Below the pieces are notes generated by a model, which made no database searches, was not told the origin of the DNA, and saw only the letters and a list, made by a program, of their open reading frames with translations. A DNA stretch of 64,000 nt from Candidatus Methylomirabilota bacterium (lineage in GTDB: Bacteria; Methylomirabilota; Methylomirabilia; Methylomirabilales; JACPAU01), in the NCBI GenBank assembly GCA_022614955.1, contig JAKEHP010000027.1, forward strand, positions 16,555 through 80,554, in the 5' to 3' direction. Shown in pieces: positions 9,386 to 43,465 of the stretch (its first letter is position 1; the number at the start of each line of letters is the position of its first letter). A program made the translations under genes and the position numbers.

Positions 9386-9880
9386 ATGAAGAGTCCCAGA
9401 GTGTTTCTGCTATGGGGATTGGCCCTCCTCTTGGCCGGGGTGTTCCTTGTCCTTCCGGCGCCTGCTGGCCAGTCCTTGCCGGCGACGCCGCTTCCGCTGC
9501 TTGAGGGAGGCACGCTAAACCTGCAGAGTTTGGAGGGGAGCGTCGTGGTGATCCGCTTCCTGGCTTCGTGGTGACCGCACTGCCAACGGGAGGCTCCCGT
9601 TTTCGAGGAAGTGTACCAGCGGTATAAGGGGAAAGGCGTGGCTTTCGTGGGGATCTTTGTCGGGGATACTGAGGCCAACGCGCGGGCGTTTGTCAGGACT
9701 CACCGCGTCAGCTTTCCGAACGGATATGACTGGAAGTTGGCCGTGGCCAAGCCGCTGGGTTACCGGGCGATGCCCTACACGGTGGTAATCTCAAGGCAGG
9801 GAGAGGTCGCTCACCGGTTTCACGGGCCAGTGTCCAAGGCTGACTTGATCACCGCCATTGAGCGCCTTCTCACAGGTTAG
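9386..9880 (+). CDS. exported TlpA-like thioredoxin/redoxin with in-frame UGA (predicted Sec) in a UxxC motif
   Basis: ORFs 9386..9574 and 9611..9880 share a frame across a single TGA (9572-9574). Read-through gives FLASW-U-PHCQREAPVF, the canonical WCxxC position. Signal peptide at the N-terminus. AGGGAG RBS. Confidence 0.75.
9585..9601 (+). promoter_or_regulatory. candidate bacterial SECIS hairpin
   Basis: Perfect 7-bp stem AACGGGA / UCCCGUU with loop GGC, starting 10 nt after the UGA. Confidence 0.5.
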
Positions 9881-10025
9881 CCGGTCCAGCGCCTCGCTCC
9901 GTGTGTGACCGCCGATCGCCGGCAGAGGAGCAGGCGACCTGGAGAAACTAAAACGTGCATCCCTTTGACCGGTCCGATTGAGCCGAAGCCACCCTTGGGC
10001 TCGTTGGACCAGGGGAGGTGAAGCC

Positions 10026-11402
10026 ATGAGGAGGAAGAGGGAGTTTGTCCTGCTCGTCTTCTTCTCGCTCGTAGCGGTGGTACTCTTACCCGCCCCATTA
10101 GGAGCGCAAGTGGCACAAAAGCCATCGGTCGACTCCCTGGTGGCCGACCTGACCCACCCCGATGGCGCCGTCCGCACGGAGGCCTTGAGCAGGCTGGGAC
10201 AGCTCGGCGATCGATCGGCCATTCCCGCCCTGATCGAGCTCTTGCGGTTTGATCGGGCCCTCGAGCTCAACGTCCCCCCGGTGCTTGAGCGCCTTTCGGG
10301 ACAGAAGTTTGGCGATGATTGGGCGAAGTGGGTGGAGTGGCTCGAGAGGCAGAAGAACCTTCGGCCGAATCCAGGGTTTGTCGCGTGGAAGGGGACCCTG
10401 TTTCAGCTCATCGATCCCGCCTTTGGGGAGTTCTTATACCCGGGCGTGAAACACCGGGTCCGCATCGAGGAGATCGTGTGGGGCGGGGTGATCAAGGACG
10501 GGATTCCGGCTCTCACCAACCCGCGCCACGTCAAGCCGAGCGAGGCCACCTACCTGACCCCCGATGAGCTGGTCCTCGGCCTCTCCATCAAGGGGGACCA
10601 TCGCGCCTATCCATTGAGGATCATGGACTGGCATGAGATGGCCAACGACGTCGTCGGAGGGACTCCCCTGACGATCTCCTACTGAACGCTGTGTGGATCG
10701 GCGATCCACTACGAGACCACCGTGAGTGGTACCACATACGTCTTCGGATCCTCAGGGTTTCTCTTCAGGAGCAACAAGCTCATGTACGATCAGAGCACCA
10801 AGAGCCTCTGGCACAACCTGACCGGGGAACCTGTCGTCGGCCCGCTGGCTGACAGCGGGATCAAGCTGAAGGTCGGGCCGGTCGTGACCACCACCTGGCG
10901 CGACTGGCTCCAGGCTCATCCCGATACCGTGGTGCTGGACATCAACACCGGCTATCTGAGGGACTACACCCCGGGCAGACCCTACGGCCAGTACTTCGCG
11001 AGTCCCGACACCATGTTTCCTTCCTCGCCCCGGAGCGATCGGCTGAAAACAAAAGAGCATGTGTTTGTGCTGAGGCTCGGGGGGAAGGCGAAGGCGTATC
11101 CCCTGGAGGTGCTCGCCAAGGAGCCGGTGGTGAACGACGTCTTGGCGGGGACGAACCTCGTCATCGTCGCTACTGCGGCCACCCGGACCGTCAGGGCCTT
11201 CGAGCGAGGGTCACACCGGTTCCGCCGGGGGCAGGGGGTGATGGAGCTGGTCGACACGGCGACCGGCGAGGTCTGGTCCGTCCAAGAAGAGGCATTAGTA
11301 AACCCCGCCAGCGGGCAGCGGCTCGCTCGGCTCGGTGGTCACCTGGCCTACTGGTTTGGCTGGTTCGCCTTTTATCCGCACACGGAGGTCTATGGGAAGT
11401 GA
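10026..11402 (+). CDS. DUF3179-family protein with N-terminal signal peptide and HEAT-like repeat, and in-frame UGA (predicted Sec) in the family CPLC motif
   Basis: ORFs 9978..10685 and 10722..11402 share a frame across TGA 10683-10685. Read-through gives [19 protein letters not shown] where DUF3179 proteins have (T/S)YCPLC. The rest ([42 protein letters not shown]) matches the family. Confidence 0.7.
10693..10709 (+). promoter_or_regulatory. candidate bacterial SECIS hairpin
   Basis: Perfect 7-bp stem GUGGAUC / GAUCCAC with loop GGC, starting 7 nt after the UGA. Confidence 0.5.
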
Positions 11403-11607
11403 GCGAGACGAGTGGGCCGACGGTCGTTGTGCGGGAGAAAACACCCTCGGCTGAATTTCGACATCATTAGGCATGTTCCCTTCTACTGACGCGGATCTAT
11501 CGTCTTCGACCCCAGCCCATCTCTGCCTTCATTCCTGGCAGGATGCCCAAGGCTAGCCATAGCCACTCACGGCTCGAACTGATTTTTCCCCTATTTGGCC
11601 GAAGATA

Positions 11608-14442
11608 ATGGGCCCCCTCATGAGCTCCCAGAATCGCTTATTAAGGACAGGCCCTCCGGCCGGGGCGCTGGCCCCTTCTGGGGTACCTTGGATTACTCTG
11701 TGGCTCCAACCTTTCGGCGCTCTTTTGGCTTTTGTGCTCGTCTCCCTCTTTACCGCCGTCCAGAGCGAGCTCGGGAACCATATCTCCTCAGGAGAAAGTC
11801 CCTCCTTCGAATGGATCAGAACCCATATAACCGAGCTCCTTTGGTTCGGGTTCGCGTATCTCTTGCTCGCCTCTGGGGTACAGTATCTGGGGATCCAGCT
11901 CCGTCGCCAGGATTATCCCCACGAGATGGCGGCCCTGGCCGGGGTAGAACTCATTGCCGTTGGGATGCTAGTCACGGGTCTTCTCCATCGATGGGATGAG
12001 CTATTACTCTGGGGACACGCCTTGCTTCAAGTTTCCATTCTGCTGCAGGTCTTCGTGACCTTAGGGCGCTCCAGCGTGTCAGAGCAGGATGAATCCATCC
12101 ATATTCTTGACTTGAGGGACAGAAGCCATGTCCTGTTCCTCTCATCTCTCTTCTTCCTCGCAGCAGTCCCAGCTTCCCTCGATCCTTCCTGGCAGCGAAT
12201 GCGGCATTACGTGCAGTTGGAATCCAGCTTTGAGATCATCTTAAGTCACGTGCTCCCTGCGGTGCTGTCTGGCGTAACCGGTCTTTGGTTTGGGATGGGA
12301 ACCTTGGCTCTCTTGGCAAGCTTCAAGGTATTCTGGGTTAGGCTGGGAGGCCAATCGTCGTTTAAGGGAGGTGTCTCGTTTTTGCTCTTCCTTTCGATCT
12401 CCGGGCTTTATGCGGCGATATGTCTCGCATCACTGGCTTATGCAATTGGTTGGGAGCTGAGCACACTCCGCCTCAGAGGCGCCATGCTGCCCCTTTTCAT
12501 TCTTCTTTGCGGGGGTGGAGGTGCCTTGAGTTATGTCGCCTTTCGACGGCTGGCGCCCCATGCACGCCGGGGAAGCGGACAAAGTCTGATCGGAATGACG
12601 GCCCTCTCCATGGGGGCTGTGCTTCTGTTTCCGATCACGTGGCTTCTGACCCGTCAAGGCCGCGGCCGGTGGTCCTGGCGGTTTCTCCTGGCCTCTTCCT
12701 TTTTGGGGAGCCTGTTGTTGGGGTACTACGTCGTTCGTGGTGACCTCTTCAATCCCTGGTTTACGGTGTTTTCCTATTTGAAGGGGGTTATTTTGAAGAT
12801 CACAGCGGTGATAGCAGCGGGAATCCTCGTCTTGATCTTTGAGGAGCTACGGTCAGTGAGCTCAAGGCGCTCCTCAAAGGCACGGAGGCGATGGATTGTT
12901 GTCGCGGCCATTGGCCTTGCTGGGTTTCTTCCCTTCGGGGCCCTCGAACGATACCGGGAAACCAAGGCAGCAATCTTACAGTTCAACGAGCTCAGTATGG
13001 TCGACGCCACTTATGCGAGAGTGCTTTCCGACTTCTTGGGAGTGGGAAGATGGGTTCGCCTGGGGCAGGTTCCGAAGCCCAACAACCATCAAGAACGATG
13101 GCCCCTACCCTGGACCCTGGAAAAGACAGGTCCTTCGCTCCTTCCGAGAGACTTCAATCTCGTGGTGATCGTGGTGGATGCCTTGCGTGGGGATGCCTTC
13201 CACTCTGCCGGGTATCATCGGGATCTCACCCCCTTTTTGGATACGTGGGCCAGGGAGGAAGCCATTTCGTTTCGTCGAGCTTACAGTCAGGGGGGTGGGA
13301 CTTTCGCCGCCTTTCCCTTCCTGGTTGCTGGAAGAAGCCGTCTTACCCTTTACGGGCCCAACCTGCACCACGAGAACCTCTATTTCAAGATCGCTCAGGC
13401 CGAGGGAATCCACCAGGTCATGGTGGTGAAAGAGTTCGGGCCGAGAGCCGTACTCCCCCCTGACTTTCCTGTCATCGAGTTGGGTGGATCAAGAGCTGGC
13501 ACAGATCGACGCTCTGTCCCTGCCGACGAGGTGTTCGGCTGGGCCCAAGGCGTCATTGCTAAACTTCGCAAGGGAGAACGGTTTCTAGCCTTTCTCCATC
13601 TCATGGATGTGCACAATGATCTATGGAAGAAAGCAGATGGGAGAGACTTTGGCGACAACCCGAGGGACCTCTACGACCACAACGTGTCTTATGTGGACAG
13701 AGCCTTTAGCAGGTTCGTGGCCTGGCTCAAACAACAAGGCATTTACCATCGAACCGTCATCTTGCTGACCTCGGACCATGGGGAGCAGTTCTGGGAACAT
13801 GGGGCCAGCCTTCACGGCCATACCCTGTACGAAGAGGAAATCCGAATTCCCCTGATCCTGCTGGCCCATGGCATTCGTGGACGGGTGGAGGACGTTCCGG
13901 TTGTGGCCGCGGATATGGCCCCCACCTTAGTCGAGCTGGCAGGTTACTCGGTCCATCCGCCTTACGACGATCCCCACATGGGGATCTCGCTTGTTCCCCT
14001 GCTGCTCGAAAAGGAACGGGACCGGTATCTCAAGAGGGATATTGTCGGCAGAGCGTCCTTTAAGCCCCGGTACTTCCTGTACCGAAATTGGGAATGGAAG
14101 TTGATCTATTCTGCTGACTTCGATCTGTTACAGCTATTCAATACAGTCAAGGACCCCAGGGAGAGGACGAGCCTGCTGCAGCAACAGCCGGAGCTAGCGG
14201 CTGAACTGGAAAGGGAACTGATCGGATATCTCGAACGCACGGAGCGAAAATCCCACCACCCGCTTCTTTCCAGCACTTCGTCGCAGCGCGACGATTGCCA
14301 TGCTAGGGTCGGAGGGGCAGAAGGTCAGCGGGAAGCGATGGCGGATGGCGGCGTGCGCGCGCTCGTAGCGGAAGGCGAAGGCTGGTGGGATGCAGTCACC
14401 GGAGCCGCGAAGCCCGGTTGCGTGCGCCACCTGTCCCCATGA
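11608..14442 (+). CDS. polytopic membrane protein with C-terminal sulfatase/alkaline-phosphatase-superfamily domain (LtaS/PEA-transferase-like)
   Basis: About 450 aa of TM helices, then VVIVVDALRGDAF...LLTSDHGEQFWEHGASLHGHTLYEEEIRIPL. Markedly lower GC than the flanks. The last ~50 codons are GC-rich and may be read-through into host DNA. Confidence 0.8.
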   Translation: MGPLMSSQNRLLRTGPPAGALAPSGVPWITLWLQPFGALLAFVLVSLFTAVQSELGNHISSGESPSFEWIRTHITELLWFGFAYLLLASGVQYLGIQLRRQDYPHEMAALAGVELIAVGMLVTGLLHRWDELLLWGHALLQVSILLQVFVTLGRSSVSEQDESIHILDLRDRSHVLFLSSLFFLAAVPASLDPSWQRMRHYVQLESSFEIILSHVLPAVLSGVTGLWFGMGTLALLASFKVFWVRLGGQSSFKGGVSFLLFLSISGLYAAICLASLAYAIGWELSTLRLRGAMLPLFILLCGGGGALSYVAFRRLAPHARRGSGQSLIGMTALSMGAVLLFPITWLLTRQGRGRWSWRFLLASSFLGSLLLGYYVVRGDLFNPWFTVFSYLKGVILKITAVIAAGILVLIFEELRSVSSRRSSKARRRWIVVAAIGLAGFLPFGALERYRETKAAILQFNELSMVDATYARVLSDFLGVGRWVRLGQVPKPNNHQERWPLPWTLEKTGPSLLPRDFNLVVIVVDALRGDAFHSAGYHRDLTPFLDTWAREEAISFRRAYSQGGGTFAAFPFLVAGRSRLTLYGPNLHHENLYFKIAQAEGIHQVMVVKEFGPRAVLPPDFPVIELGGSRAGTDRRSVPADEVFGWAQGVIAKLRKGERFLAFLHLMDVHNDLWKKADGRDFGDNPRDLYDHNVSYVDRAFSRFVAWLKQQGIYHRTVILLTSDHGEQFWEHGASLHGHTLYEEEIRIPLILLAHGIRGRVEDVPVVAADMAPTLVELAGYSVHPPYDDPHMGISLVPLLLEKERDRYLKRDIVGRASFKPRYFLYRNWEWKLIYSADFDLLQLFNTVKDPRERTSLLQQQPELAAELERELIGYLERTERKSHHPLLSSTSSQRDDCHARVGGAEGQREAMADGGVRALVAEGEGWWDAVTGAAKPGCVRHLSP

Positions 14443-20209: not shown

Positions 20210-21231
20210 GAGAGCATTCCAGCGGGAAGAGCCTTCGCTACCCGTCAAACCCGGCGAGCAGCGCCAGGAGGAGGACCCCCGGGAGAGGCCCCCGGTACCT
20301 GCTGGCCCTGGTCCTTGCCCTTGGCGGATGCCTGGGGAGCCGAGAGATTCCCAGGGTGGCAACGGTCCCCGTCGGGCAGTGGCCCGAGGATGTGGCCTTC
20401 GATCCCGGATCGGATCAACTCTTTGTCGCCGATGAGGGGAGCGCGACGGTCACTGTTTTGAGATCGAACGGGCAGCCGGTCAGCACGATCCGACTTGCGA
20501 CGAGGGCCCGGCATCTGGCCGTGGATCCGGGACTCAGCCATCTCTATGCGCCGAATGAGGGGAGTGCCTTCGTCGCCGCCTTCAACACCCGGGATCTCAC
20601 GGAGCGCTTCCGGGTTCCCGTGGGGCGGCAGCCCCATGGGATCGCGGTGGATGGCTCCTCGCATCGCGTCTTCATCGGCAATGAGGGGGAGGGCTCCCTC
20701 ACCGCCTTTGAAGGCCGGACGGGCCAGGTCCTCTTTACGGTCCCGGTGGGAGAGGGTCCCGGCGGGGTTGCCGTGGATCCTGCGACGGGGCGAGTGTTCG
20801 TGGTGAGCGTAAAAGAAGACCGCGTGATCGTGGTGGATGGAAGAACGGGGCTCGGTCTTGCTAAGATCCCGGTCGGGCGAGGCCCCACGCACCTGCGGGT
20901 CAATGGGGAGACGGGGGTCGTCTATGTTTTGAACACCGAGGCCGGCAGTGTGAGCGTTCTGGATGGCCGCCGGGCGCGTCCCCTCGTCACGCTCCCCGTC
21001 GGGAGCTACCCCATCGGCATTGCGCTGGATGAGCGAGCAGGTCGGGCCTACGTGGTGAACAACCGGGGCAACACCCTCTCCATCGTCGAGGAGGCCACTC
21101 TGACGGTCGTGGCGACACGGCGGATTCCTCGGAACGTCTCCAGCGTGGCGCTGAACCCCCGCGCCGGACTGCTCTATCTCGCCCTGAAGAGCGATGATCG
21201 AGCCGTCCTGGTCCGGATGCGTGACCTCTGA
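20164..21231 (+). CDS. YVTN-type beta-propeller repeat lipoprotein (start uncertain)
   Basis: Lipobox LALVLALGGC followed by repeated P.GIAVDP..GRVYV.N...SVSVID-type blades. No ATG/GTG between the upstream stop and the lipobox; TTG 20164 is the only candidate. Confidence 0.65.
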   Translation: MPGAEHPGDVPGHAIGEHSSGKSLRYPSNPASSARRRTPGRGPRYLLALVLALGGCLGSREIPRVATVPVGQWPEDVAFDPGSDQLFVADEGSATVTVLRSNGQPVSTIRLATRARHLAVDPGLSHLYAPNEGSAFVAAFNTRDLTERFRVPVGRQPHGIAVDGSSHRVFIGNEGEGSLTAFEGRTGQVLFTVPVGEGPGGVAVDPATGRVFVVSVKEDRVIVVDGRTGLGLAKIPVGRGPTHLRVNGETGVVYVLNTEAGSVSVLDGRRARPLVTLPVGSYPIGIALDERAGRAYVVNNRGNTLSIVEEATLTVVATRRIPRNVSSVALNPRAGLLYLALKSDDRAVLVRMRDL

Positions 21232-23034: not shown

Positions 23035-23090
23035 GACCTCGGGAGGCTTGACGACCCACCCGCCCCCTTCGTATCAATCGGGGTGTCGCG

Positions 23091-30254: not shown

Positions 30255-30264
30255 GGGTGTGCTC

Positions 30265-31565: not shown

Positions 31566-31916
31566 ATGGAGAGCATGGTCCAGAACGACAAGCGCGCCCC
31601 CGTCCGGATTCAGATCGAATACGGGAGCGGGGGACCCTTCTTCTCGGCCCAGTCCCTGAACCTCAGCCGAGGGGGAGTCTTCCTTCAGACCGAGTTCCTC
31701 CTCCCGCCCGGCCGCGCCGTCCAGCTCATCTTCAACATCCCGGCCAAGCCCCGCCTCTCGCTCCTGGGTCGGGTTGTCTGGACACGGGGCCCCGGGGACC
31801 CGCGGGGGCCGGCCGGCATTGGCATCCAGTTCGAGACGGTCGCCCCGGAGGTGCTCCGGGTGATCGAGGAATTACTCCAGAATCACAACAGGACCAACGT
31901 CCCCGCTCCCTCCTAG
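31566..31916 (+). CDS. single-domain PilZ protein
   Basis: RAPVR (RxxxR) followed by NLSRGG (D/NxSxxG) and a beta-rich remainder. Confidence 0.75.
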   Translation: MESMVQNDKRAPVRIQIEYGSGGPFFSAQSLNLSRGGVFLQTEFLLPPGRAVQLIFNIPAKPRLSLLGRVVWTRGPGDPRGPAGIGIQFETVAPEVLRVIEELLQNHNRTNVPAPS

Positions 31917-31917
31917 C

Positions 31918-32976
31918 TCAGGGGACCACCTGGATCTTCCCCGCCGGCCCCGCCGTCACCTCGCCGATCCGCGCCGCAGCCAGCACCCCTTTGGTGTTGC
32001 TCAAGCGCCGGAGCATCTCCTGACTCTTCGCCTTCCCCACGGCCATGAGGAGGCCCCCCGAGGTCTGGGCGTCGGAGAGGACGAGGCGGACGTCCTCGCC
32101 CATCCCGGGAGCCCATTCCACGTTCCCCTCCAGCGATTTCAGGTTCCGGCGTGTCCCGCCGGGGCAGATCCCCTCGCGGACCAACTTCCAGGCCTCGGGG
32201 AGGACGGGCACAGCCCGAAGCGAGATCGTCGCCCCCACCCGGCTGGCGGCGGCGACCTCGCGCAGATGACCCAGGAGGCCGAACCCGGTGATGTCCGTGC
32301 AGGCGTGAACACCCCCGACCGCCTCCATGACCTCGGCGGCATAGCGGTTCAGCGTGCTCATCGTGGCCACCGCCAAATCCACCGTGGCCGCCTCCACCTT
32401 CTGGCGCTTGATCCCGGTGGTGATGATCCCCATGCCGAGTGGCTTCGTCAGGATGAGATCGTCCCCGACCCGGGCCCCAGCGTTTGTCAAGATCTTTTCG
32501 GGATGCACGACCCCCGTTACCACCAGGCCGTACTTCGGCTCGGGGTCGTCAATGCTGTGCCCGCCGACGATGGACGCCCCTGCCTCCACCACCTTGTCTG
32601 CCCCTCCCTTCATGATGGCCTCCAGGACCGACAGGGGGAGGGTGCCGGTGGGAAAGCCGACCACGTTCAGGGCGAACAGTGGGCGCGCCCCCATGGCGTA
32701 GATGTCGCTCAGGGAGTTGGCCGCCGCCACCGCCCCGCAGGCGTAGGCATCGTCCACGACGGGGGTGATGTAGTCCACCGACTGGACGATGGCCAGCTCG
32801 GGTGTCAGGCGGTACACCGCCGCGTCGTCGGAGGTCTCCGGCCCCACGAGGACGTTCGGATCGGTGATCTTGGGCAGCTGGCCCAGGACCTGGGCCAGGT
32901 CCGACGGACTGATTTTGCAGGCTCACCCCGCCCCGTGGGAGAGACTGGTGAGCCGGACGGGCTCCTCGGTGGGCAT
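31918..32976 (-). CDS. selD: selenide, water dikinase (selenophosphate synthetase) with in-frame UGA (Sec) in the N-terminal glycine-rich loop
   Basis: Track ORF 31918..32847 starts inside the gene. Extending upstream in frame across TGA (32925-32923) to ATG 32976 (AGGAGA RBS) gives MPTEEPVRLTSLSHGAG-U-ACKISPSDLAQVL...GPETSDDAAVYRL, the SelD GxG(C/U)xxK motif. Confidence 0.85.
32886..32902 (-). promoter_or_regulatory. candidate SECIS hairpin in selD
   Basis: 7-bp stem GGACCUG / CAGGUCC with loop GCC, starting 20 nt after the UGA. Confidence 0.4.
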
Positions 32977-33036
32977 TTCCGTATCTCCTGAGCGGGCCGC
33001 CGCGGAAGAGGCCTGACCTGCCTTTTCGATGCGCCC

Positions 33037-33549
33037 TCAGCGGCGCCGTTTCTCCTGGAGGGCCTTATCCGCCGCCTGGACCTTCTCTGCCAGAACCTGA
33101 CGGGCAGCCTCCAGCCGCCCGCGGAGAGCCGGGTCCGCCGTGGCCAGGATGGCCAGGGCGAGCAGCGCGGCGTTTCGGGCTCCGGCCTTCCCGATCGCCA
33201 CGGTCGCCACGGGGACCCCCGCCGGCATCTGGACCGTCGCGAGGAGGGCATCGAGGCCCTGCAAGGGGGAGGAGTCGAGGGGAACGCCGATCACCGGAAG
33301 GACGGTCCCGGCCGCCAGGGCGCCGGCCAGGTGAGCCGCGCCGCCGGCCCCGGCGATGAGCACCTTCAGCCCGCGCCCCGCTGCTTTCCGGGCGTAGGCG
33401 GCGGCCTGCTCCGGGGTCCGGTGGGCGGAACAGATCCGGACCTCGTGGGGGATCCCGTTCTCCTCCAGGACCCTCGCCGCCTCCTCCATCACCGGGAGGT
33501 CCGACTCGCTCCCCATCAGGATCCCGACCAACGGTGTCTCTCCGGCCAC
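33037..33549 (-). CDS. purE: N5-carboxyaminoimidazole ribonucleotide mutase
   Basis: GTG 33549 after [20 protein letters not shown]...ICSAHRTP...AGGAAHLAG...GVP motifs. Confidence 0.9.
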
Positions 33550-33560
33550 AGAGGTTTCTC

Positions 33561-34838
33561 CTATCGAGGATACCGAAGCGCCTTGGCCCCGATGTCGCTC
33601 CGGAAGTGGGCCCCCTCCCAGGTGATCCGTCGAACCGCCTCGTAGGTCCGCGCGATCGCCTCCCGCACGTCCCGGCCCCGCCCGGTGACCCCCAGGACGC
33701 GCCCGCCGTCGGTCACGAGGTGGGCCCCCCGCCGAGCCGTCCCGGCATGGAAGATCACAACCCCGTCCACCTTCGCCGCCTCCTCGAGACCGTGGATGAC
33801 CTTTCCCTTCTGGTAGGTGCCGGGGTAGCCGCCCGAGGCCATCGCCACGCAGACGGCAGCGTCTTCCTTCCATTGAAGGGTGACCTCGTGGAGGCGGCCG
33901 TCGAGCACCGCCTCCAGGACCGGCACCAGGTCGTTGTCCATCCGGAGAAGCAGGGGTTGGGCCTCCGGGTCGCCGAAGCGCGCGTTGAACTCCAGAACCT
34001 TCGCCTCCCCGTCCTTGATCATGACGCCGGCGTAGAGCACGCCCCGGTAGGGCCGGCCCTCGGCCGCCATGGCCCGGACGGTGGGGACCATGACCCGGTC
34101 CATGATCTGGCGATGGAGCGCTGCGCTCACCACGGGGGCGGGGGAGTAGGCCCCCATCCCCCCGGTGTTAGGCCCCTCGTCATTGTCGTAGATCGGCTTG
34201 TGATCCTGAGCCGAGGCGAGCGGTAGCACTGTCTTCCCGTCGGTGAAGGCCAGGAAAGACGCCTCCTCCCCCTCCAGGCACTCCTCCACGACGACCCGGT
34301 CTCCCGCCTCCCCGAAGGCCCGTTGCTCCATGATGAGACGGACGGCGGCCACAGCGTCCGCCAGCGTCCGGCAGACCAGGGCCCCCTTTCCGGCGGCGAG
34401 CCCGTCCGCCTTGACCACGATCGGGACGCGCCGTTCCCGGACGTAGGCGAGGGCGGCGTCCGGCTCGCTGAACTCCCGAAAGGCGGCCGTGGGGATGCCG
34501 TACTTGACCATCAGAGCCTTGGCGAAGGCCTTGCTCCCCTCGATCTGGGCGGCAGCCCGGGAGGCGCCGAAGGCCCGGAGGCCCCGGCGGTGAAGCTCGT
34601 CCACCAGGCCTAACGTGAGGGGCACCTCCGGCCCGACCACCGTGAGGTCAATCCTTTCCTTCTCGGCGAAGAGCGCCAGGGCGGGCACGTCCGTGGCTCC
34701 CACCGGGACGCACTCGGCCTGCTCAGCGATGCCGGCGTTGCCGGGGGCGGCGTAGAGCAGCTTCACGCGGGGACTCTGGGCCAGTTTCCAAACGAGCGCG
34801 TGCTCCCGGCCCCCCGAGCCGACCACCAAGATCTTCAT
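33561..34838 (-). CDS. purD: phosphoribosylamine--glycine ligase
   Basis: [19 protein letters not shown]...; ATP-grasp core; 425 aa. Confidence 0.95.
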
Positions 34839-34856
34839 CGCCGGTCCCCCCTGCTC

Positions 34857-36398
34857 CTAGTGACGGAAGTGCCGCATTCCCGTGAAGACCATCGCCATCC
34901 CATGCTCGTCGGCCGCCTGGATGACCTCGGTGTCCCGGACGGAGCCGCCCGGCTGGATGACGGCCGTGGCCCCGGCCTCTGCGGCCGCGTCCAGGGCGTC
35001 CCGGAACGGGATAAAGGCGTCGGAGGCGACAACGCTCCCTTTGGTCGGGAAACAGGCTTTTATCACCGCGAGGCGACAGGCGTCCACCCGGCTCATCTGC
35101 CCGGCCCCCACCCCCACCGTGGCTCCGTCATGGGCGAAGACGATGGCGTTCGACTTCACGTGCTTGACCACGATCCACGCGAAGCGCAGGTCGGCCATCT
35201 CTTGCGTCGTGGGGGCACGCCGCGTCACGGCCCTGAGCGCCTGCTCCTCAAGGGTCGCCCGGTCAGCCTCCTGGAGCAGGAGGCCGCCCCCCACGCTCCG
35301 GAGCTCCTGGCGCGTCAGTTCTCCTTCCGGCACCACCAGGAGGCGGAGGTTCTTGCGGCCCTTGAGCGCGGTCAGGGCGCCTTCGGTATAGCCCGGCGCC
35401 ACCACCACCTCCACGAACGTCTGGGCGATCTCAACGGCTGCGGGCGCCTCGAGCGGCCGATTGAACCCCAGGATCCCACCGTAGGCGGAGGTGGGGTCGG
35501 TGTCCCGCCCCCGACGGTAGGCCTCGACCTGAGACGGCCGCAGCGCGGCGCCGCAGGGGTTCGTGTGCTTCACGACGACACACCCGGCGCCTGGCAGGTC
35601 GTGGGCGGCCGCCCACGCTGCGTCGCAGTCCAGGAGGTTGTTGTAGGAGAGCTCCTTGCCCTGGAGCTGCCGGGCTTGCCCCAGACCCCCGAGCCCTGGC
35701 ACGCGGTAGAAGGCGCCCGCCTGGTGCGGGTTTTCGCCGTACCGCAGGTCCTGGACTTTCTCGGCGGCCAGCGCCAGGACCGAGGGAAACGGTGAAGCTT
35801 CCTCCTGCGCCAGGTGAGTGGCGATGGCGGCATCGTAGAGCGCGGTGTGCCGGAAGGCCTCGGCAGCCAGCGCCGCCCGGGTGGGATCGGAGAGAGCCCC
35901 GCCGCTCGCCGTGAGCTCGGCCAGGATGGCGGCGTAGCGCTCCGGGTTCACCACGACGGCGACGGCTGGATGGTTCTTGGCCGCCGACCGGAGGAGGGCG
36001 GGGCCGCCGATGTCAATCTGCTCCAGGGCCTCCGCGGTACTCACACCAGGGTGAGCCACCGTCTCGCGGAACGGGTACAGGTTCACGCAGACCAGGTCAA
36101 TGGGGACGATGCCGGCCGCCTCAAGCTCTCGCTGGTGTGCCGGCAGGTCACGGCGGGCCAGGATAGCCCCGTGGATGGCGGGGTGGAGGGTCTTGACGCG
36201 GCCATCCAGCATCTCGGGAGAGCGGGTGACCTCGCTGACCTCGGTCACCGGCACCCCGGCCTCCCTGAGCGCCCTCGCTGTGCCGCCGGTGGAGAGGAGC
36301 GTGATCCCCCAGGCGGCTAAGGCCCGGGCGAACTCGGCCAGGCCCCGCTTGTCGGAGACACTCAGGAGCGCGCGGCGGACTTTCACGAGCTCTCCCAT
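34857..36398 (-). CDS. purH: bifunctional AICAR formyltransferase / IMP cyclohydrolase
   Basis: [12 protein letters not shown]...GGTA...[11 protein letters not shown]-type N-terminus and C-terminal FTGMRHFRH. Confidence 0.95.
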
Positions 36399-36400
36399 GG

Positions 36401-37066
36401 TCAGGGGTTGAGGCCGCCGAAGTCCGGCGGCGTCCCGCCGTCGGGGGCGGGCGCGCAGATGACTCGTCGCCCCCGGACCTGAAGGCGACCTTCCGCGAAG
36501 AGCTGGATTGCCCGCGCATATATATGATGCTCGTAGCGGAGGATCCGCACGGAGAGGGCCTCCTCCGTGTCGTCGTTGAGCACCGGGACGACCGCCTGGA
36601 TGATGATGGGGCCGGTGTCGGTCCCTTCGTCCACGAAGTGGACGGTGCAGCCGGTGAACTTGACCCCGTGCTGCAGGGCCTTCCGCTGGACGTGCAATCC
36701 CGGGAAGGCCGGGAGGAGGGCGGGGTGGATGTTCATGATCCGGTGCCGGTAATGGGCCACGAAGGCGGGAGTCAGGAGACGCATGAACCCGGCCAGGCAG
36801 ACCAGATCCACCCGGTGCTGCTCGAGGTGGCCGATGAGGGCCTTGTCAAAGGCCTCCCGGGTGGGATGGGCCTTCGGGTCCTCGAAGAGGGCCGGGATGT
36901 TGCGCTGGCGCGCGCGCTCGAGGGCGTAGGCGTCGGCCACGTCGGACAGGACCACCACCACGTCGGCGCTGAGGCGCCCGGCAGCGCTGGTGTCCAGGAT
37001 CGCCTGCAGGTTGGACCCGCGCCCCGAGACCAGGACCCCCACGCGCAGGCGCCGGGCGACCGTCAT
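36401..37066 (-). CDS. purN: phosphoribosylglycinamide formyltransferase
   Basis: ATG 37066. VLVSGRGSNLQAIL, NIHPALLPAF, GCTVHFVDEGTDTGPII motifs. The track's 476-aa version is an upstream shadow extension. Confidence 0.9.
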   Translation of the reverse strand: MTVARRLRVGVLVSGRGSNLQAILDTSAAGRLSADVVVVLSDVADAYALERARQRNIPALFEDPKAHPTREAFDKALIGHLEQHRVDLVCLAGFMRLLTPAFVAHYRHRIMNIHPALLPAFPGLHVQRKALQHGVKFTGCTVHFVDEGTDTGPIIIQAVVPVLNDDTEEALSVRILRYEHHIYARAIQLFAEGRLQVRGRRVICAPAPDGGTPPDFGGLNP

Positions 37067-38112
37067 CCCCGCGCCCCCTGCCGGTGACGCACGTCCACGC
37101 CGCGCTCTCCGGCCACGATGCGGCCGATGCGGGCCGCGACCTCTCCGGCACCTGCCAGCAGGCTCAGCGCCCGCCCGGCGTCCGCTTCCGCCACGACCAG
37201 AACGAAGCCGATCCCCAGGTTGAAGACCCGCAGCATCTCCTCGGCCGGCACATCCCCGGCCCGCTCGATGAGGCCAAAGACGGGCGGCTCCGGCCAGGCG
37301 GAGGCGTCCAGGACCGCGCGGCAGCCGGCGGGCAGGACGCGCGGGAGGTTGCCCACCAGGCCGCCTCCCGTGATGTGGGCCATCGCCTTCACCGGGAGCG
37401 CCTCCAGCAAGTGGCGGATGGCGCGGACGTAGATCCGGGTGGGCGTCAGCAACTCGTCTACCAGCGGGCGCGCCAGGGGGGCAAGGACGGCGTCCAGCGC
37501 GTAGCCGGCCCGCTCCAGGAGGGCGCGGCGGGCGAGGCTGAACCCGTTGCTGTGCAGGCCGCTGCTCGGCAGACCTAGGACCACGTCCCCGGGAACGACC
37601 GTTCGCCCATCCACGACCCGCTCCCGCTCCACCACCCCCACCAGGAAGCCGGCCAGGTCGTACTCTCCAGCACCGTAGCAGTCGGGCATCTCGGCCGTCT
37701 CGCCCCCCAGGAGGGCGCACCCGGCCTCGCAGCACCCCTCGGCGACCCCGGCCAGGATCTCCTCGGCAACGGACGGCTCCAACTGACCGGTGGCGAGATA
37801 GTCCAGGAAGAAGAGAGGCTCGGCGCCGCACACCAGGACATCGTTGGCTGACATCGCCACCAGGTCAATCCCGATTGTCCGGTGCCGGCCGGCCTGCTGG
37901 GCGATCTTCAGCTTGGTGCCGACGCCGTCTGTGGAGGCGACCAGGACGGGGCTCCGGTATCGGGAGGGGAGAGCGAAGAGGCCGGCGAAGCTCCCGATGT
38001 CGGCCAGGACCTCGGGTCGCCGGGTTTTCGCGGCCAGTCCCTTGATCCGCTGGACGAACGCCTCCGCGCCGGCGAGATCCACACCAGCCTGTTTGTAGGT
38101 GAGGGGCCCCAT
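37063..38112 (-). CDS. purM: phosphoribosylformylglycinamidine cyclo-ligase (AIR synthetase)
   Basis: ATG 38112. LTYKQAGVDLAGAE...STDGVGTKL...GGETAEMP...HSNGFSL motifs. Confidence 0.95.
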   Translation of the reverse strand: MGPLTYKQAGVDLAGAEAFVQRIKGLAAKTRRPEVLADIGSFAGLFALPSRYRSPVLVASTDGVGTKLKIAQQAGRHRTIGIDLVAMSANDVLVCGAEPLFFLDYLATGQLEPSVAEEILAGVAEGCCEAGCALLGGETAEMPDCYGAGEYDLAGFLVGVVERERVVDGRTVVPGDVVLGLPSSGLHSNGFSLARRALLERAGYALDAVLAPLARPLVDELLTPTRIYVRAIRHLLEALPVKAMAHITGGGLVGNLPRVLPAGCRAVLDASAWPEPPVFGLIERAGDVPAEEMLRVFNLGIGFVLVVAEADAGRALSLLAGAGEVAARIGRIVAGERGVDVRHRQGARG

Positions 38113-38122
38113 TGGCGTCGGG

Positions 38123-38776
38123 TCAGGCCGGCGTGGCACGGGGGGGTTCCGCTTCGCCGAAAACCTCGGCCGTGAAGATGTGGAGCTCGGCTCCCTGCCG
38201 CCAGGCATCCGCGGCGAGCAGGGCCTTCCGGCAGGCAAAGTCCAGGAATGTCTCCCGGTCCCACCCCTGCTCGGTGGCCACCTGCGGGAGGAGGACCCCC
38301 CGTTGCTCGCCGGCGTTCACGCAGACCCCATGGGTCCCGGGGATCAACTGCACCACGTTCTCCAGGGGCTGCAAGGCGGAGAGGATCGAGATCTCGATGG
38401 TGAGCCGGCCCAGCTCGTCAGGGACGACAGGGGGAAAGCGGGGGTCGGAGGTGGCGGCGGAGACCACGCAGTGCGCAATCGTGGCGGCCAGGGTTTTCGT
38501 GGGCTCCAGAGACCCGACGCAGCCGCGCAGATCGCCCCCCGAGCGGAGGGTCACAAAGGCTGCCCCGGGCTGGTCCAGGGAGGGCGAAATCTCCGGCAGC
38601 CCGCCGGAAACGCTCCCGAGCAGGTGCTCTTCCAGGGCCCGCCGGGCCATCGTGAGCAATGCCGCCCGCTCATCCGGCGTCAACGGCGCATGCCCCTCCC
38701 CGCCCCGGCTGCGGCCCCGGAGGCCCGGGGGGCCGGTGCTGGCCAGAGTATACGGAGCGCTCCGGAGACCTGTCAA
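38123..38776 (-). CDS. AMMECR1-domain protein
   Basis: GAAFVTL...LRGCVGSLEP...DPRFPPV...GVLLPQV motifs. Confidence 0.8.
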   Translation of the reverse strand: MTGLRSAPYTLASTGPPGLRGRSRGGEGHAPLTPDERAALLTMARRALEEHLLGSVSGGLPEISPSLDQPGAAFVTLRSGGDLRGCVGSLEPTKTLAATIAHCVVSAATSDPRFPPVVPDELGRLTIEISILSALQPLENVVQLIPGTHGVCVNAGEQRGVLLPQVATEQGWDRETFLDFACRKALLAADAWRQGAELHIFTAEVFGEAEPPRATPA

Positions 38777-38844
38777 TTGGAAAGGCCGGCGCGTGAAGGG
38801 GTTCGGTCGTCCAGGATGTCGCAGGTTGGCCGAGAAAAAGCCGC

Positions 38845-38890
38845 TTGACAGGGATCAAGAGCCAATGCTAATTGTTGATCAAATCAATAG
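38845..38890 (+). promoter_or_regulatory. candidate promoter plus AT-rich palindromic operator upstream of the Rrf2 gene
   Basis: TTGACA (38845-38850), 18 nt, TGcTAATTG-type extended -10. This is followed by ATTGTTGATCAAATCAAT, which contains the perfect palindrome TTGATCAA. It is an AT-rich island in GC-rich DNA. Confidence 0.35.
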
Positions 38891-38943
38891 GGAAGGTCGT
38901 GTTCTGAGTTTTGGATCTCGCCCACAGGGCGAGGGGGAAGGTC

Positions 38944-39393
38944 ATGAGGATCTCGGCGAAAGGGGATTACGCCACCCGGGCCATGCAGGAACTGGCGATG
39001 AACTATAACCGGGGACCCCTCCCGATCGAGGCAATTGCCAAGCGCCGGCATATCCCCGTCCGCTACCTGGAGCAGCTCCTCCTGATCCTGAAGCGGGCCG
39101 GCTTCCTGGAGAGTAAGCGCGGCGTGAAGGGCGGCTACTACCTGGCCAAGCCGCCGGGCCAGATCACGGTCGGGGAGATCGTCCGGCTGATGGACGGCTC
39201 TCCGGCCCCGATCTTCTGTGTGGACCCCACCAGCCATGACAAGTGCCCGGTGGAGCCGATCTGCGGCTTCCAGAGCGTCTGGGACGAGGTCTACCAGGCG
39301 ATCGCCAACATCATTGACAAGACCACGCTCGAGGACATCTGCCACCGCGCCATGCTGAAGATCGCACCGGGCGCCGTCAGCTACCGGATCTAG
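38944..39393 (+). CDS. Rrf2-family transcriptional regulator (IscR/CymR-like, three C-terminal Cys)
   Basis: MRISAKGDYATRAM...IPVRYLEQLLLILKRAGFLESKRGVKGGY wHTH. C-x8-C-x5-C cluster (FCVDPTSHDKCPVEPIC). Confidence 0.85.
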   Translation: MRISAKGDYATRAMQELAMNYNRGPLPIEAIAKRRHIPVRYLEQLLLILKRAGFLESKRGVKGGYYLAKPPGQITVGEIVRLMDGSPAPIFCVDPTSHDKCPVEPICGFQSVWDEVYQAIANIIDKTTLEDICHRAMLKIAPGAVSYRI

Positions 39394-39424
39394 CCGGATC
39401 TAGCCGGACCGACGGAGGGAACGC

Positions 39425-40339
39425 ATGGCTCGGGTTGCCCGGAACGCGCTAGATCTCATCGGCGGGACACCTCTGGTCGCCCTCCCTCGGCTGAGCCCTC
39501 GAGGCGGGGCCCGCATCCTCGGGAAGCTGGAGTCGGTCAACCCGGGGGGCAGCGTGAAGGACCGGATCGCCCTGTCCATGGTGGAGGCGGCGGAGCGGGA
39601 CGGGCTTCTCAAACCCGGCGCGACGATCGTGGAGCCCACGTCGGGCAACACCGGGATCGGCTTGGCTCTGGTCTGCTCCGTGAAGGGGTATCAGCTCATC
39701 CTCACAATGCCGGACGACATGAGCGTGGAGCGGCGAACGCTCTTGGCCCGTTTCGGGGCGGAGGTGATCCTGACGCCGGCCATCGAGGGGATGACGGGGG
39801 CGGTGTACGCCGCGGAGGAGCTCTGCCGGGAGCACCCGGACTACTTCATGCCCCAGCAGTTTGAGAACCCCGCAAACCCGGAGATCCACCGCCAGACCAC
39901 GGCGCGGGAGATTCTGGAGGCCACCGGGGGCGACCTGCACGCGTTCGTGGCTGGCGTCGGGACCGGGGGGACCATCACCGGGGTGGGGGAGGTCCTCAAG
40001 CGAGAGGTCCCGGGGGTCCGGGTAGTGGCCGTGGAGCCGGCCCGGTCCCCGGTCCTGCAAGGGGGGAAGGCCCGTCCCCACGCCATCCAGGGGATCGGCG
40101 CCTCCTTCGTCCCCGGGGTCCTGAACCGTGCCGTCCTGGACGAGATCATCGCGGTGGCCGACGACGATGCCCTGAAGATGACGGGGCGCCTGACCCGGGA
40201 GGAAGGGCTGTTGCTGGGGGTCTCGGCGGGGGCGAATGTCTTCGCCTCCGTGAAGGTGGCCCGAGAGCTGGGCGCCGGCAAGGTAGTGGTCACGGTGCTC
40301 CCCGACACGGGCGAGCGCTACCTGAGCGTCCCCCTGTAA
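39425..40339 (+). CDS. cysK: cysteine synthase (O-acetylserine sulfhydrylase family)
   Basis: IGGTPLV, PLP-lysine motif GGSVKDR, TSGNTGIGLA, GVGTGGTITG. Confidence 0.9.
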   Translation: MARVARNALDLIGGTPLVALPRLSPRGGARILGKLESVNPGGSVKDRIALSMVEAAERDGLLKPGATIVEPTSGNTGIGLALVCSVKGYQLILTMPDDMSVERRTLLARFGAEVILTPAIEGMTGAVYAAEELCREHPDYFMPQQFENPANPEIHRQTTAREILEATGGDLHAFVAGVGTGGTITGVGEVLKREVPGVRVVAVEPARSPVLQGGKARPHAIQGIGASFVPGVLNRAVLDEIIAVADDDALKMTGRLTREEGLLLGVSAGANVFASVKVARELGAGKVVVTVLPDTGERYLSVPL

Positions 40340-40383
40340 GGCGCGGCGCGCCTGGAGACAGGTCGAACGAGGAGAGGCAAGGC

Positions 40384-41475
40384 ATGCCCGTGACGGTGTA
40401 CATCCCCACCCCATTCCGGAAGCTGACGGGGAACATCGCCCAGGTGGAGGCGGAGGCGGCCGACCTGGCCGGTCTCCTCGCCGTCCTGGAGGACCGTTTC
40501 CCCGGCCTCCGGGAACGGGTCGTGGACGAGCTGGGGGCCATCCACCGCCACGTGAACGTCTACGTCAACGACCGGGCGGTGGAGGACCTGGGGGGGGCCC
40601 GGACCCCCTTGCGAGACGGGGACGAGGTAGCCCTGATCCCGGCCATCGCCGGCGGTGCTTTGCCATTCAGCGAGGAGCAGATCCGGCGGTACAGCCGCCA
40701 CATTATTCTCCCGGAGATGGGCGGGAAGGGGCAGCGGAAGCTCTTGAACAGCAGCGTCCTCCTGGTCGGGGCGGGGGGACTGGGCTCCCCGGCCGGCCTG
40801 TACCTGGCGGCTGCGGGGGTAGGACGGATCGGGATCGTGGACTTCGACCGGGTGGACCTGAGTAACCTGCAGCGGCAGCTCCTCCACCGGACGAAGGACG
40901 TGGGGCGGCTCAAGGTGGACTCGGCGGCGGACACCATTGCCGAGATCAATCCGGACGTGAAGGTGGAGGCCCATCCGGTCCAGCTCTCGAGTGCCAACGT
41001 GAAGGAGATCCTGCAGGCCTACGACGTGGTGGTGAACGGCTGCGATAACTTCCCCACCCGCTACCTGCTGAACGACGCCTGCGTTTTCCTGAAGAAGCCT
41101 CTCGTGGACGGGAGCCTCTTCCGGTTCGAAGGGCAGGCCGCGGTCTTTCTCCCCGGTCAGGGCTGTTACCGGTGCCTCTATCCCTCCCCGCCGCCGCCAG
41201 GCCTCGTCCCCTCCTGCCAGGAGGCCGGGATCCTCGGGGTCCTGTGCGGGATCATCGGGTGCATCCAGGGAATCGAGGCGATCAAAGTCCTGCTCGGGAT
41301 CGGAGAGTCGCTGGCCGGACGCATGCTCTTCTTTGACGCGATGACCATGGAGTTCCGCCAGGTCCAGTTCCGCCGGGATAAGGCCTGCCCGGTCTGCGGC
41401 GATGCCCCGACGATCACGGACTTGCTTGACTACCACGAGTTCTGCGGGGTCCCCGCGGGGCAGAGGGTGAGCTAG
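40384..41475 (+). CDS. fusion protein: N-terminal MoaD/ThiS-like ubiquitin-fold sulfur carrier (ending ...PAIAGG) joined directly to a MoeB/ThiF-type E1 adenylyltransferase
   Basis: Residues 1-92 are paralogous to the two free MoaD-like genes in this window and end in AIAGG. The E1 domain follows after a two-residue (Ala-Leu) linker (ALPFSEEQIRRYSRHIILPEMG, VGAGGLGS, CYRC...CPVC zinc site). No stop or frameshift at the junction. Confidence 0.85.
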   Translation: MPVTVYIPTPFRKLTGNIAQVEAEAADLAGLLAVLEDRFPGLRERVVDELGAIHRHVNVYVNDRAVEDLGGARTPLRDGDEVALIPAIAGGALPFSEEQIRRYSRHIILPEMGGKGQRKLLNSSVLLVGAGGLGSPAGLYLAAAGVGRIGIVDFDRVDLSNLQRQLLHRTKDVGRLKVDSAADTIAEINPDVKVEAHPVQLSSANVKEILQAYDVVVNGCDNFPTRYLLNDACVFLKKPLVDGSLFRFEGQAAVFLPGQGCYRCLYPSPPPPGLVPSCQEAGILGVLCGIIGCIQGIEAIKVLLGIGESLAGRMLFFDAMTMEFRQVQFRRDKACPVCGDAPTITDLLDYHEFCGVPAGQRVS

Positions 41476-41808
41476 ATGACGTTCGGCTTTCTCCTGACCA
41501 CCTCGCCCGAGCGGGCCGATGCCCGGACGGTCATCCGGCTCGCAGAGGCGGCGCTCGAGACCGGCCACCGCGTGGAGCTGTTCCTGATGAACGACGGGGT
41601 CTACAACGTCGTGGCGGCGCCCAAGCACCCGGTGAGCGGCGACTTCGTCCGCCTGATGGAGTTCGGTGCGGCGATCACCCTGTGCGCGACGAGCGCGGGA
41701 CCCCGGGGAGTGACGAAGGAGAACGCCCTCCCGGGCGTGCGCTTCGGCAGCCAGCATGACCACGCCCAGATGGTCGCCCGGGCCGACCGGGTGCTGACCT
41801 TCTGCTGA
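41476..41808 (+). CDS. DsrE/TusD-family sulfur-relay protein
   Basis: 110 aa with FLMNDGVY and active-site-type LCATSAGPRG. Confidence 0.8.
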   Translation: MTFGFLLTTSPERADARTVIRLAEAALETGHRVELFLMNDGVYNVVAAPKHPVSGDFVRLMEFGAAITLCATSAGPRGVTKENALPGVRFGSQHDHAQMVARADRVLTFC

Positions 41809-41812
41809 GGGG

Positions 41813-42166
41813 ATGATGGGTAAGCAGGTGACGGTCCTCATCCGGCGGCCGCCGCTCACCTCGGAGAAGACGGCCGAGGCGTTGCGGGTTGCCGTGGGCT
41901 ATACGCTGGCCGGGGGGCAGCGCGTAACCGCGTGCTTCGTCGGGGACGGGGTCTATGCCGTCGGTACCTTGCGGCCCGCTGTGGCCGGCGCTCCGGACCT
42001 GGAGAAGCACCTCGTAGCCCTCAAAGCGCTCGGCCAGCGCCTGGTGGCCGACGCCGCCGCCGTGCGCCAGCGACCGGGCCTCACCCTGCGGCCTGATGTC
42101 GAGGCCCTGGAGCTCGGAGAGATTCTGAACCTGCTCACCGACGCGGACATGGTCGTCCCGTTCTAG
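41813..42166 (+). CDS. DsrF/TusC-family sulfur-relay protein
   Basis: 117 aa; FVGDGVYAV...DADMVVPF pattern; position between the DsrE- and DsrH-like genes. Confidence 0.7.
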   Translation: MMGKQVTVLIRRPPLTSEKTAEALRVAVGYTLAGGQRVTACFVGDGVYAVGTLRPAVAGAPDLEKHLVALKALGQRLVADAAAVRQRPGLTLRPDVEALELGEILNLLTDADMVVPF

Positions 42167-42181
42167 GCCGGAAGAAAGCCG

Positions 42182-42439
42182 ATGCGGATCCTCCACATCA
42201 TCCGGCACCCGAGGGAGGAGATGGGCTGGCAGGTGGCCGAGGCTCAGGCCGGGCGCCACGAGGTGGCGGTCCTGCTCCTGCAGGACGGCGTGCTCTCCCG
42301 GCGCGAGACGGCCCTGCCCCTGTACGCCTCGGCGGTGGACCTCGAGGCCCGCGGGCTTCCCGCGGACCGGGGCAAGCCCCTGAGTGACGCCGAGATCGTG
42401 GAGGTGCTCGCCGCCCACGACCGGCTCGTCACCTGGTAG
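42182..42439 (+). CDS. DsrH/TusB-family sulfur-relay protein
   Basis: 85 aa; LLLQDGV...YASAVDLEARGL...LVTW terminal pattern. Confidence 0.65.
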   Translation: MRILHIIRHPREEMGWQVAEAQAGRHEVAVLLLQDGVLSRRETALPLYASAVDLEARGLPADRGKPLSDAEIVEVLAAHDRLVTW

Positions 42440-42448
42440 GAGAGACGC

Positions 42449-43465
42449 GTGCTCAAGGCGCTCATCCTGGGACTGCCGGTGGGGCTGGCCTTCGGCTACG
42501 CCCTGCAGCGGGGACGCTTCTGCCTGAACACCGCCTTCCGGGATGTCTTCCTCATTCGCGACTCGACGCTGGTCCGGGCGTGGGCGCTGGCGCTGCTCAT
42601 CCAGATGGCCGGGGTCCATGCCCTGGCGGGACTCGGCTGGTTCCAGATGGGGATGGCCCCCTTCTGGTGGCAGGCCGCGCTCCTGGGCGGCCTCGTCTTC
42701 GGCTGGGGGATGGTCCTCTCGGGCGGGTGAACGACGGGCGTCTCCTACCGGTCGGGTGAGGGGATGGTGGCCTCGTGGATCAGCCTGGTGGGATTTGGCC
42801 TCGGGATCATGATGACGAGCGGCGGCCTCCTCGAGCCCCTGCAGCATCGGCTGCGAACCGCGGTCATCGGCGAAGGCCCACCGGCCACGGCGGCCAGCCT
42901 GCTCGGTCTCAGCCCGTGGATCGTCATCGCGGCCTTCGCCCTCCTGGTCGGCTTCTGGTTCCTCCGGAGGCCGGCCAGGGTGGCGTACCAGGGAGGCTGG
43001 ACCTGGCCTGTGACCGGACTCGCCATCGGCCTCATCGCGCTTGCCGCCTGGCCGCTCTCCGCGCTAACCGGCCGGCAGTTCGGGCTTTCGGTCACGGAGC
43101 CCGTCTATTCCTATATGCGGGTGGCCCTCCTGGGCCAGGTGGAGGCCCTGAACTGGGCGAGCGTCATGTGGCTGGGGATCCCCCTGGGCTCGTACGTCTC
43201 GGCCCGCTGGCACGGCGAGTTCAAGTGGCGGAGCCCTGGGCCCCAGCGCCTCCTCCAGGCCCTCGGGGGCGGGGTGGTGATGGGAATCGGCGCCGCGATC
43301 GGCGGCGGTTGTACCGTGGGACACAGCCTGACCGGGTTTTCCACCCTGGCTATGTCGAGCATCGCGGCGACGGCCGGGATCGTAGCGGGGGTCTGGTCCG
43401 CGACCCTCATTCTCTTTGGTGACGTGCTGGTCGGAAGGAGCGTGCGACATGCGGAGCGAGCGTAG
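42449..43465 (+). CDS. YeeE/YedE-family (TsuA-like) sulfur/selenium transporter with in-frame UGA (predicted Sec) replacing a conserved Cys
   Basis: ORFs 42449..42730 and 42764..43465 share a frame across TGA 42728-42730. Read-through gives VLSGG-U-TTGVSYRSGEG (family motif GGCxxG). The second-half motif GGGCTVGHSL retains Cys. About 9 TM in total. Confidence 0.7.
42742..42763 (+). promoter_or_regulatory. candidate SECIS stem-loop in the YeeE-like gene
   Basis: CUCCUACC / GGU(G)AGGGG stem with one bulged G and loop GGUCG, starting 11 nt after the UGA. Confidence 0.35.

Follow-up and report, generated by a model that had tools for sequence, protein, structure and literature searches.

In Escherichia coli fdhF and fdnG, an in-frame UGA is decoded with the help of SelB and of a hairpin in the coding sequence, the selenocysteine insertion sequence (SECIS), whose small loop starts with G(G/U), and UGA elsewhere is a stop. 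Here we analyzed a 64,000-nucleotide stretch of DNA from a Candidatus Methylomirabilota bacterium (GenBank assembly GCA_022614955.1, contig JAKEHP010000027.1; hereafter the window), in which four genes show the same layout: those of a TlpA/ResA-like redoxin, a DUF3179 protein, the selenide, water dikinase SelD and a YeeE/TsuA-like transporter. Comparison of these sequences with their homologues makes it very likely that they are four bona fide selenoprotein genes in which UGA is decoded as selenocysteine (Sec). The stems in the window are unrelated in sequence to those of the E. coli genes, their loops lie at differing distances from the UGA (14 nucleotides [nt] in DUF3179, 17 in the redoxin, 19 in YeeE and 33 in selD), and we infer that SelB binds here as well. 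The nearest likeness to the E. coli GGUC-type loop is in YeeE, where the loop GGUCG starts at nt 23 (the U of the UGA being nt 1); the GGUC loop of fdhF starts at about nt 22.

All four families are catalogued as prokaryotic selenoprotein families in two compilations (PMC9312934, PMC13188914). The DUF3179 selenoprotein with its UxxC/T motif was predicted for the first time in the delta-1 symbiont of Olavius algarvensis (Zhang and Gladyshev, 2007; listed in PMC9312934 and PMC13188914), the YeeE/YedE selenoprotein has the motif GUxSG (Zhang and Gladyshev, 2008; Peng et al., 2016; both listed in PMC13188914), and UxxC proteins of the Redoxin family (PF08534) as well as TlpA-like selenoproteins are also on record (PMC13188914). 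What the window holds is true recoding in members of these four catalogued families, with no new mechanism and no new selenoprotein family. Also cited in PMC13188914 is a Methylomirabilota metagenome-assembled genome (MAG) for which 63 selenoprotein genes are predicted, more than in any other bacterial selenoproteome to date (Deng et al., 2026, Cell Rep). It shares with the window its phylum and a high density of Sec genes. The initial annotation of this DNA had considered four such genes in 64 kb a high density; the count is real, but it is in line with that MAG, since four Sec genes, two of them adjoining, would not be far from the expectation of about one per several tens of kilobases. The window adds a well-supported case to what is known of Methylomirabilota as a lineage rich in selenoproteins.

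UGA occupies a conserved cysteine position in four genes

The four UGAs start at positions 9572, 10683, 32925 (minus strand) and 42728 of the window, and all proved to be in frame exactly where the initial annotation had placed them. When the UGA codon was translated as cysteine, each protein gave one unbroken Pfam match spanning the TGA (4/4). At all four sites the UGA column aligns with a cysteine of the homologues, as had also been proposed: the invariant cysteine of 120/120 DUF3179 homologues, Cys91 of the transporter structure 6LEO, Cys17 of the SelD structure 3U0O and the first cysteine of the ResA motif. The accompanying description of these cysteines as catalytic stands by homology only, and a catalytic role of the DUF3179 CxxC motif is conjectural.

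The redoxin gene (9386–9880, plus strand) encodes a putatively secreted TlpA/ResA-like protein with a UxxC active site (U63, C66), its UGA lying at 9572–9574 within the motif W-U-P-H-C. The match to Redoxin PF08534 is above cutoff (80.9 bits, residues 27–150) and extends across the TGA, and U63 aligns with the first cysteine of the ResA WCxxC motif. Scores remained below the NCBIfam cutoffs for the ResA, TlpA and WAxxUGC models. Like the catalogued Redoxin/TlpA-like selenoproteins, the protein has a thioredoxin fold in which Sec is the N-terminal residue of CxxC; unlike the TlpA form with its 'UGC' motif, it carries W-U-P-H-C.

The adjoining gene (10026–11402, plus strand) encodes a presumably secreted protein made of HEAT repeats and a DUF3179 domain with UxxC (U220, C223), and its UGA lies at 10683–10685 in the motif Y-U-T-L-C-G-S. 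The PF11376 match (280.2 bits, residues 157–453) runs across the TGA and covers profile positions 1–292 of 292. A cysteine stands at the UGA column in 120/120 full-length DUF3179 homologues, within an invariant Y-C-T-L-C whose two cysteines are the only invariant ones of the family. In the known DUF3179 selenoprotein, too, PF11376 has Sec as the first residue of the invariant CxxC; the window gene differs from it by its N-terminal HEAT-repeat extension, its Sec-redoxin neighbor and a loop only 14 nt from the UGA. Both the redoxin and the DUF3179 protein have hydrophobic N-termini, that of the redoxin judged by eye. The two genes are neighbors in several phyla (loci L008, L042, L050, L060, L068 and L080): in Alphaproteobacteria both are Cys forms, and in a Rokubacteria MAG both are Sec forms. 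The redoxin may therefore work with the CxxC motif of DUF3179 as a functional redox pair.

The selD gene (31918–32976, minus strand) has its UGA at 32923–32925, in frame within H-G-A-G-U-A-C-K. It scores 396.7 bits against TIGR00476 (cutoff 125), and the Pfam domains AIRS and AIRS_C lie across the TGA. U18 aligns with E. coli Cys17 (3U0O; HGAG-U-ACK versus HGAG-C17-GCK), and the N-terminal loop G-x-G-(U/C)-x-C-K is present. This is the arrangement of the classical Sec-SelD of bacteria, archaea and animals, with Sec at the Cys17 equivalent of the GxGU/CxCK loop, from which the window gene differs in nothing notable save that it is appended as the last gene to purM-N-H-D-E. That gene order is common to close relatives, but not to Ca. 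Methylomirabilis lanthanidiphila.

The fourth gene (42449–43465, plus strand) encodes a YeeE/TsuA-like sulfur-compound transporter with C25, U94 and C288, and its UGA lies at 42728–42730 in the motif S-G-G-U-T-T-G. Sulf_transp PF04143 matches with 260.8 bits across the TGA. U94 aligns without gaps with Cys91 of Spirochaeta thermophila YeeE (StYeeE; 6LEO), and the only other cysteines, C25 and C288, align with C22 and C293 of StYeeE; complementation assays showed that YeeE cannot function without C91 and C293 (PMC7449682). As in the known YeeE/YedE selenoproteins, PF04143 has Sec at the Cys91 equivalent and TusA/YeeD-like genes lie nearby; the motif G-U-T-T-G departs from GUxSG, which is found in a distant orthologue as G-U-A-S-G (L090). 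The protein missed the NCBIfam TsuA equivalog cutoffs (230 versus 400 bits and 188 versus 645). By its sequence it is a member of the PF04143 family, and a TsuA function is only putative.

The UGA and its hairpin are retained in relatives

A hairpin seen in one sequence only counts as weak evidence; it is the comparison with relatives that decides for recoding. A hairpin follows each of the four UGAs, in agreement with the G+C-rich stem-loops with G-containing loops that had been noted at these sites. None of the close Methylomirabilota and Rokubacteria orthologues examined has lost either the TGA or the hairpin, and compensatory base changes are seen in the hairpins; a sister assembly (GCA_975200995.1; 99.9% identical) carries all four TGAs.

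The linkage is most direct for DUF3179, where the hairpin GUGGAUC-GGC-GAUCCAC (10693–10709, plus strand) has a 7-bp stem, the loop GGC and an energy of -8.1 kcal/mol. A scan of one genome per species yielded 80 DUF3179 loci. The eight closest loci (L002–L009; 57–71% identical, most of them labelled Methylomirabilota or Rokubacteria) carry TGA at this codon; TGC or TGT stands there in 71 more distant ones. The 5-bp core of the hairpin is present in 9/9 UGA forms versus 1/71 Cys forms. At pair 15/23, A-U is swapped for G-C at the price of an Ile-to-Thr change in the protein. The UGA and Cys forms of DUF3179 provide clean comparative evidence for a DUF3179 SECIS. The loop begins 13–14 nt after the UGA, below the published range of 16–37 nt, yet across nine orthologues the hairpin is the sole element with a strict linkage to the UGA. 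It is a speculative and rather unlikely extension that these hairpins represent a short-spacing SECIS class, with a different SelB-ribosome geometry in Methylomirabilota, and that the redoxin works with DUF3179 as a dedicated redox couple outside the cytoplasm, both partners having switched to Sec jointly.

In the redoxin gene, the hairpin AACGGGA-GGC-UCCCGUU (9585–9601, plus strand; 7 bp, loop GGC starting 17 nt after the UGA, -8.1 kcal/mol) was followed in six orthologues. The TGA is kept in five loci (L008 and L100–L103), a 6-bp helix holds its register, and in the divergent L008 copy both bases of three pairs have changed. Altogether, 91.7% of the helix cells are paired, versus 39–69% in slid controls.

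The SECIS region of selD (32878–32909, minus strand) consists of a 4-bp hairpin (32899–32909, loop GUC) followed by a 9-bp hairpin, CUGGCCCAG-GUC-CUGGGCCAG (32878–32898), which has a GUC loop 33 nt from the UGA and an energy of -16.3 kcal/mol. The TGA is present in 7/7 fetched loci (L093–L099) and in the sister contig (L001). The 9-bp helix is 100% paired in five distinct orthologues, with one compensatory double change (C-G to U-A) and one G-C to G-U change.

For YeeE, the hairpin GUCUCCUACC-GGUCG-GGU(G)AGGGGAU (42740–42765, plus strand) has 10 bp with one bulge, -12.0 kcal/mol and a loop 19 nt from the UGA. The TGA and the same hairpin occur in nine metagenome contigs (L082–L090; 60–97% identical), among which the last loop nucleotide is the single freely varying base, and the TGA is also found in the sister contig. 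As evidence that this hairpin is maintained there is reduced synonymous variation: the value over the hairpin is 0.119, about half the 0.229 found outside it, and ranks tenth among 138 sliding windows. We consider it supportive only.

These comparisons bear on whether the TGAs could instead be assembly or sequencing errors, or inactivating mutations that leave pseudogenes or split genes. Such a reading draws on the behavior of standard gene callers, which split or truncate all four genes: 6/7 database matches of the redoxin are C-terminal fragments, and the best 120 database homologues of selD (63–100% identity) are all truncated at the N-terminus, with 305–325 amino acids (aa) versus 352. Nevertheless, the identical TGA recurs in many independent assemblies at 31–97% protein identity, the reading frame stays open and the protein conserved both before and after it, the site is always an invariant cysteine, and the hairpins co-vary. 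TGAs kept across independent assemblies together with covarying hairpins exclude assembly error and pseudogenization, which we regard as extremely improbable for these genes. Two of the objections that the initial annotation had foreseen, hairpins that are not conserved in orthologues and an assembly prone to error, are answered by the same observations. The main consequence is for annotation: a selD, a sulfur or selenium transporter and two putatively secreted redox proteins would be mis-annotated or taken for pseudogenes, here and in many metagenomic relatives.

Hairpin descriptors, selenocysteine machinery and the inserted residue

We compared the four hairpins with the published constraints for bacterial SECIS elements (bSECIS) that PMC13188914 quotes: a loop of 3–9 nt with G in the first two loop positions, a stem of 4–16 bp, a spacing of 16–37 nt and an energy of at most -7.5 kcal/mol. 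Three of the four, those of the redoxin, selD and YeeE (the last with one bulge in its stem), satisfy these constraints, which about 12% of random positions also pass. The four hairpins have the generic descriptor alone in common, while spacing and stem differ.

Several observations weigh against the decoding of these UGAs as Sec. The DUF3179 hairpin satisfies every bSECIS constraint but spacing (14 nt versus 16–37 nt). With a G+C content of 67% in the window, hairpins taken from the single sequence are barely above chance: their folding z-scores (+0.07 to -0.76) are uninformative, and minimum free energies fall at percentiles of 0.36 (redoxin), 0.35 (DUF3179), 0.09 (selD) and 0.14 (YeeE) relative to random codons. 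Among random codon positions, 3.3% have a correctly placed G-containing loop on a stem of 7 bp or more, and a contiguous-stem bSECIS descriptor is passed by about 12% of random positions and by 11.5% of all 1,489 TGA triplets. The YeeE hairpin overlaps the conserved peptide GVSYRSGEG, and the comparison made for it covers UGA forms only. Finally, neither the window nor 29 related loci yielded a tRNA, and hence no tRNA-Sec; no SelA or SelB domains are present among the window genes, and none of the fetched loci holds selA or selB.

An Rfam search of the window returned an S-adenosylmethionine (SAM) riboswitch as its sole match, and the 10 kb beyond the window start hold no sel genes. The only gene of the Sec machinery in the window is selD. 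As the enzyme of selenium donation is itself encoded by a UGA-containing gene, we have an indirect argument that Sec decoding is functional in this organism.

We propose that one UGA in each gene would be decoded as Sec through the short G+C-rich hairpin located 7–24 nt downstream, within the coding sequence. This hairpin would be a bacterial SECIS with G(G/U) in its apical loop. By analogy with E. coli, SelB would read it, and the hairpin would bring SelB-GTP-Sec-tRNA(Sec) to the ribosome, where release factor 2 competes for the codon; a UGA without such a hairpin would stay a stop. The genes selA, selB and selC would lie elsewhere in the genome. Sec would take the place of a reactive cysteine in each case: the nucleophilic cysteine of CxxC in the redoxin and DUF3179, the Cys17 equivalent in the glycine-rich loop of SelD, and the central, essential Cys91 equivalent in the conduction pathway of YeeE.

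The same hairpins could also serve a non-canonical SelB-dependent tRNA that inserts cysteine or another amino acid at UGA. Mukai, Vargas-Rodriguez, Soll and colleagues have reportedly described tRNAs of this tRNA(ReC)/allo-tRNA type in some uncultured bacteria. Nothing in the sequence analysis fixes the identity of the inserted residue, and the tRNA gene lies outside the window. However, a selD that itself contains UGA speaks for an active selenium pathway, Sec is known from all four families, and the prior for ReC-type systems is low, so that we hold insertion of another residue to be very improbable and Sec to be very likely the residue inserted.

UGA is otherwise a stop codon in the window

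TGA terminates 27 of the 62 genes delineated in the window, including every example given in the initial annotation, which had held TGA to be an ordinary stop and global reassignment unlikely. The count bears this out: since TGA ends 27/62 genes, the code is not reassigned. A genome-wide reassignment of UGA (for example, to Trp or Gly), or a generally leaky UGA in this lineage, could account for the four read-through sites and nothing more. It is opposed by the sensible C-termini and neighboring starts of the genes that end in TGA, by the alignment of the four sites to Cys rather than to Trp or Gly, and by a coding-potential scan that returned no other in-frame TGA; we give it next to no credence relative to site-specific decoding as Sec.

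We looked for a fifth Sec site in the window by scanning the frame preference of G+C at third codon positions, by scanning codon usage with short flanks and by extending every gene upstream and downstream, and found none. Three TGAs were considered and rejected. At 295 (minus strand), a gamma-glutamyltranspeptidase gene is followed by TerC, and at 23940 (plus strand), a methyltransferase gene is followed by a family 2 glycosyltransferase (GT2) gene; in both cases, neighboring genes merely share a frame. The TGA at 7248 (plus strand) is the ordinary stop of a remnant redoxin C-terminus. This short open reading frame (ORF; 7140–7250, plus strand) apparently encodes the C-terminus of a TlpA-type redoxin (…VPETFFIDWEGRIAHKHVGE…), has an A+T-rich stretch upstream and is probably a gene remnant.

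A cluster at 21231–26667 (plus strand) resembles the cassette formerly called 'rSAM/selenodomain-associated'. It comprises genes for a DUF2064 glycosyltransferase, a NUDIX protein, a methyltransferase, a GT2 enzyme and two radical SAM (rSAM)/SPASM proteins, with no in-frame TGA in any of them. The DUF2064 gene scores 184.5 bits (cutoff 134) against TIGR04282, the 'arsenosugar biosynthesis' glycosyltransferase. We rejected the DUF2064/rSAM region (21.2–26.7 kb) as a source of an ArsS-type 'selenodomain' selenoprotein: both rSAM genes score below the ArsS cutoff and terminate at ordinary stop codons.

Outside the window, a related contig (L101, 5763–6285, minus strand) carries a deiodinase-like PF00837 gene with an in-frame TGA in the motif G-S-Y-T-U-P-P-F, a further selenoprotein gene of this lineage, again truncated by the gene caller.

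Genomic surroundings of the four genes

The YeeE gene is embedded in a large sulfur-assimilation cluster at 38.9–63 kb. This supercluster (38900–63000) is unusually large and includes Rrf2, CysK/CysM, three ThiS-like carriers, a ThiS-ThiF fusion, DsrE/F/H-like genes, two rhodaneses, two TusA/YeeD-like genes, sulfite reductase, CysH, ATP sulfurylase, TauE, HemD, CbiX and the SAM riboswitch. The riboswitch (RF00162, 92.8 bits; 60638–60753, plus strand) lies upstream of genes for a PALP-family enzyme and a ThiS-like carrier (61088–62711). The arrangement at 60638–62711 suggests SAM-regulated sulfur amino-acid synthesis that depends on a protein thiocarboxylate.

Downstream of the DUF3179 gene, the segment 11608–14442 (plus strand) has a G+C content of 56–61% versus 67% overall and encodes a protein of 944 aa that has a sulfatase domain and whose N-terminus is polytopic; the segment may be horizontally acquired DNA. 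About 1 kb at 20210–21224 lacks a convincing ORF or Pfam match and contains a 340-aa minus-strand ORF that is likewise without a match.

The sister contig CDHKUS010000014.1 (L001, from GCA_975200995.1) matches the window at 1–11939 and at 29425–46381. It diverges fully after window position 46381 (its own position 16957), at the ThiS/CysM junction; either the strains differ by a rearrangement, or one of the two assemblies is broken there.

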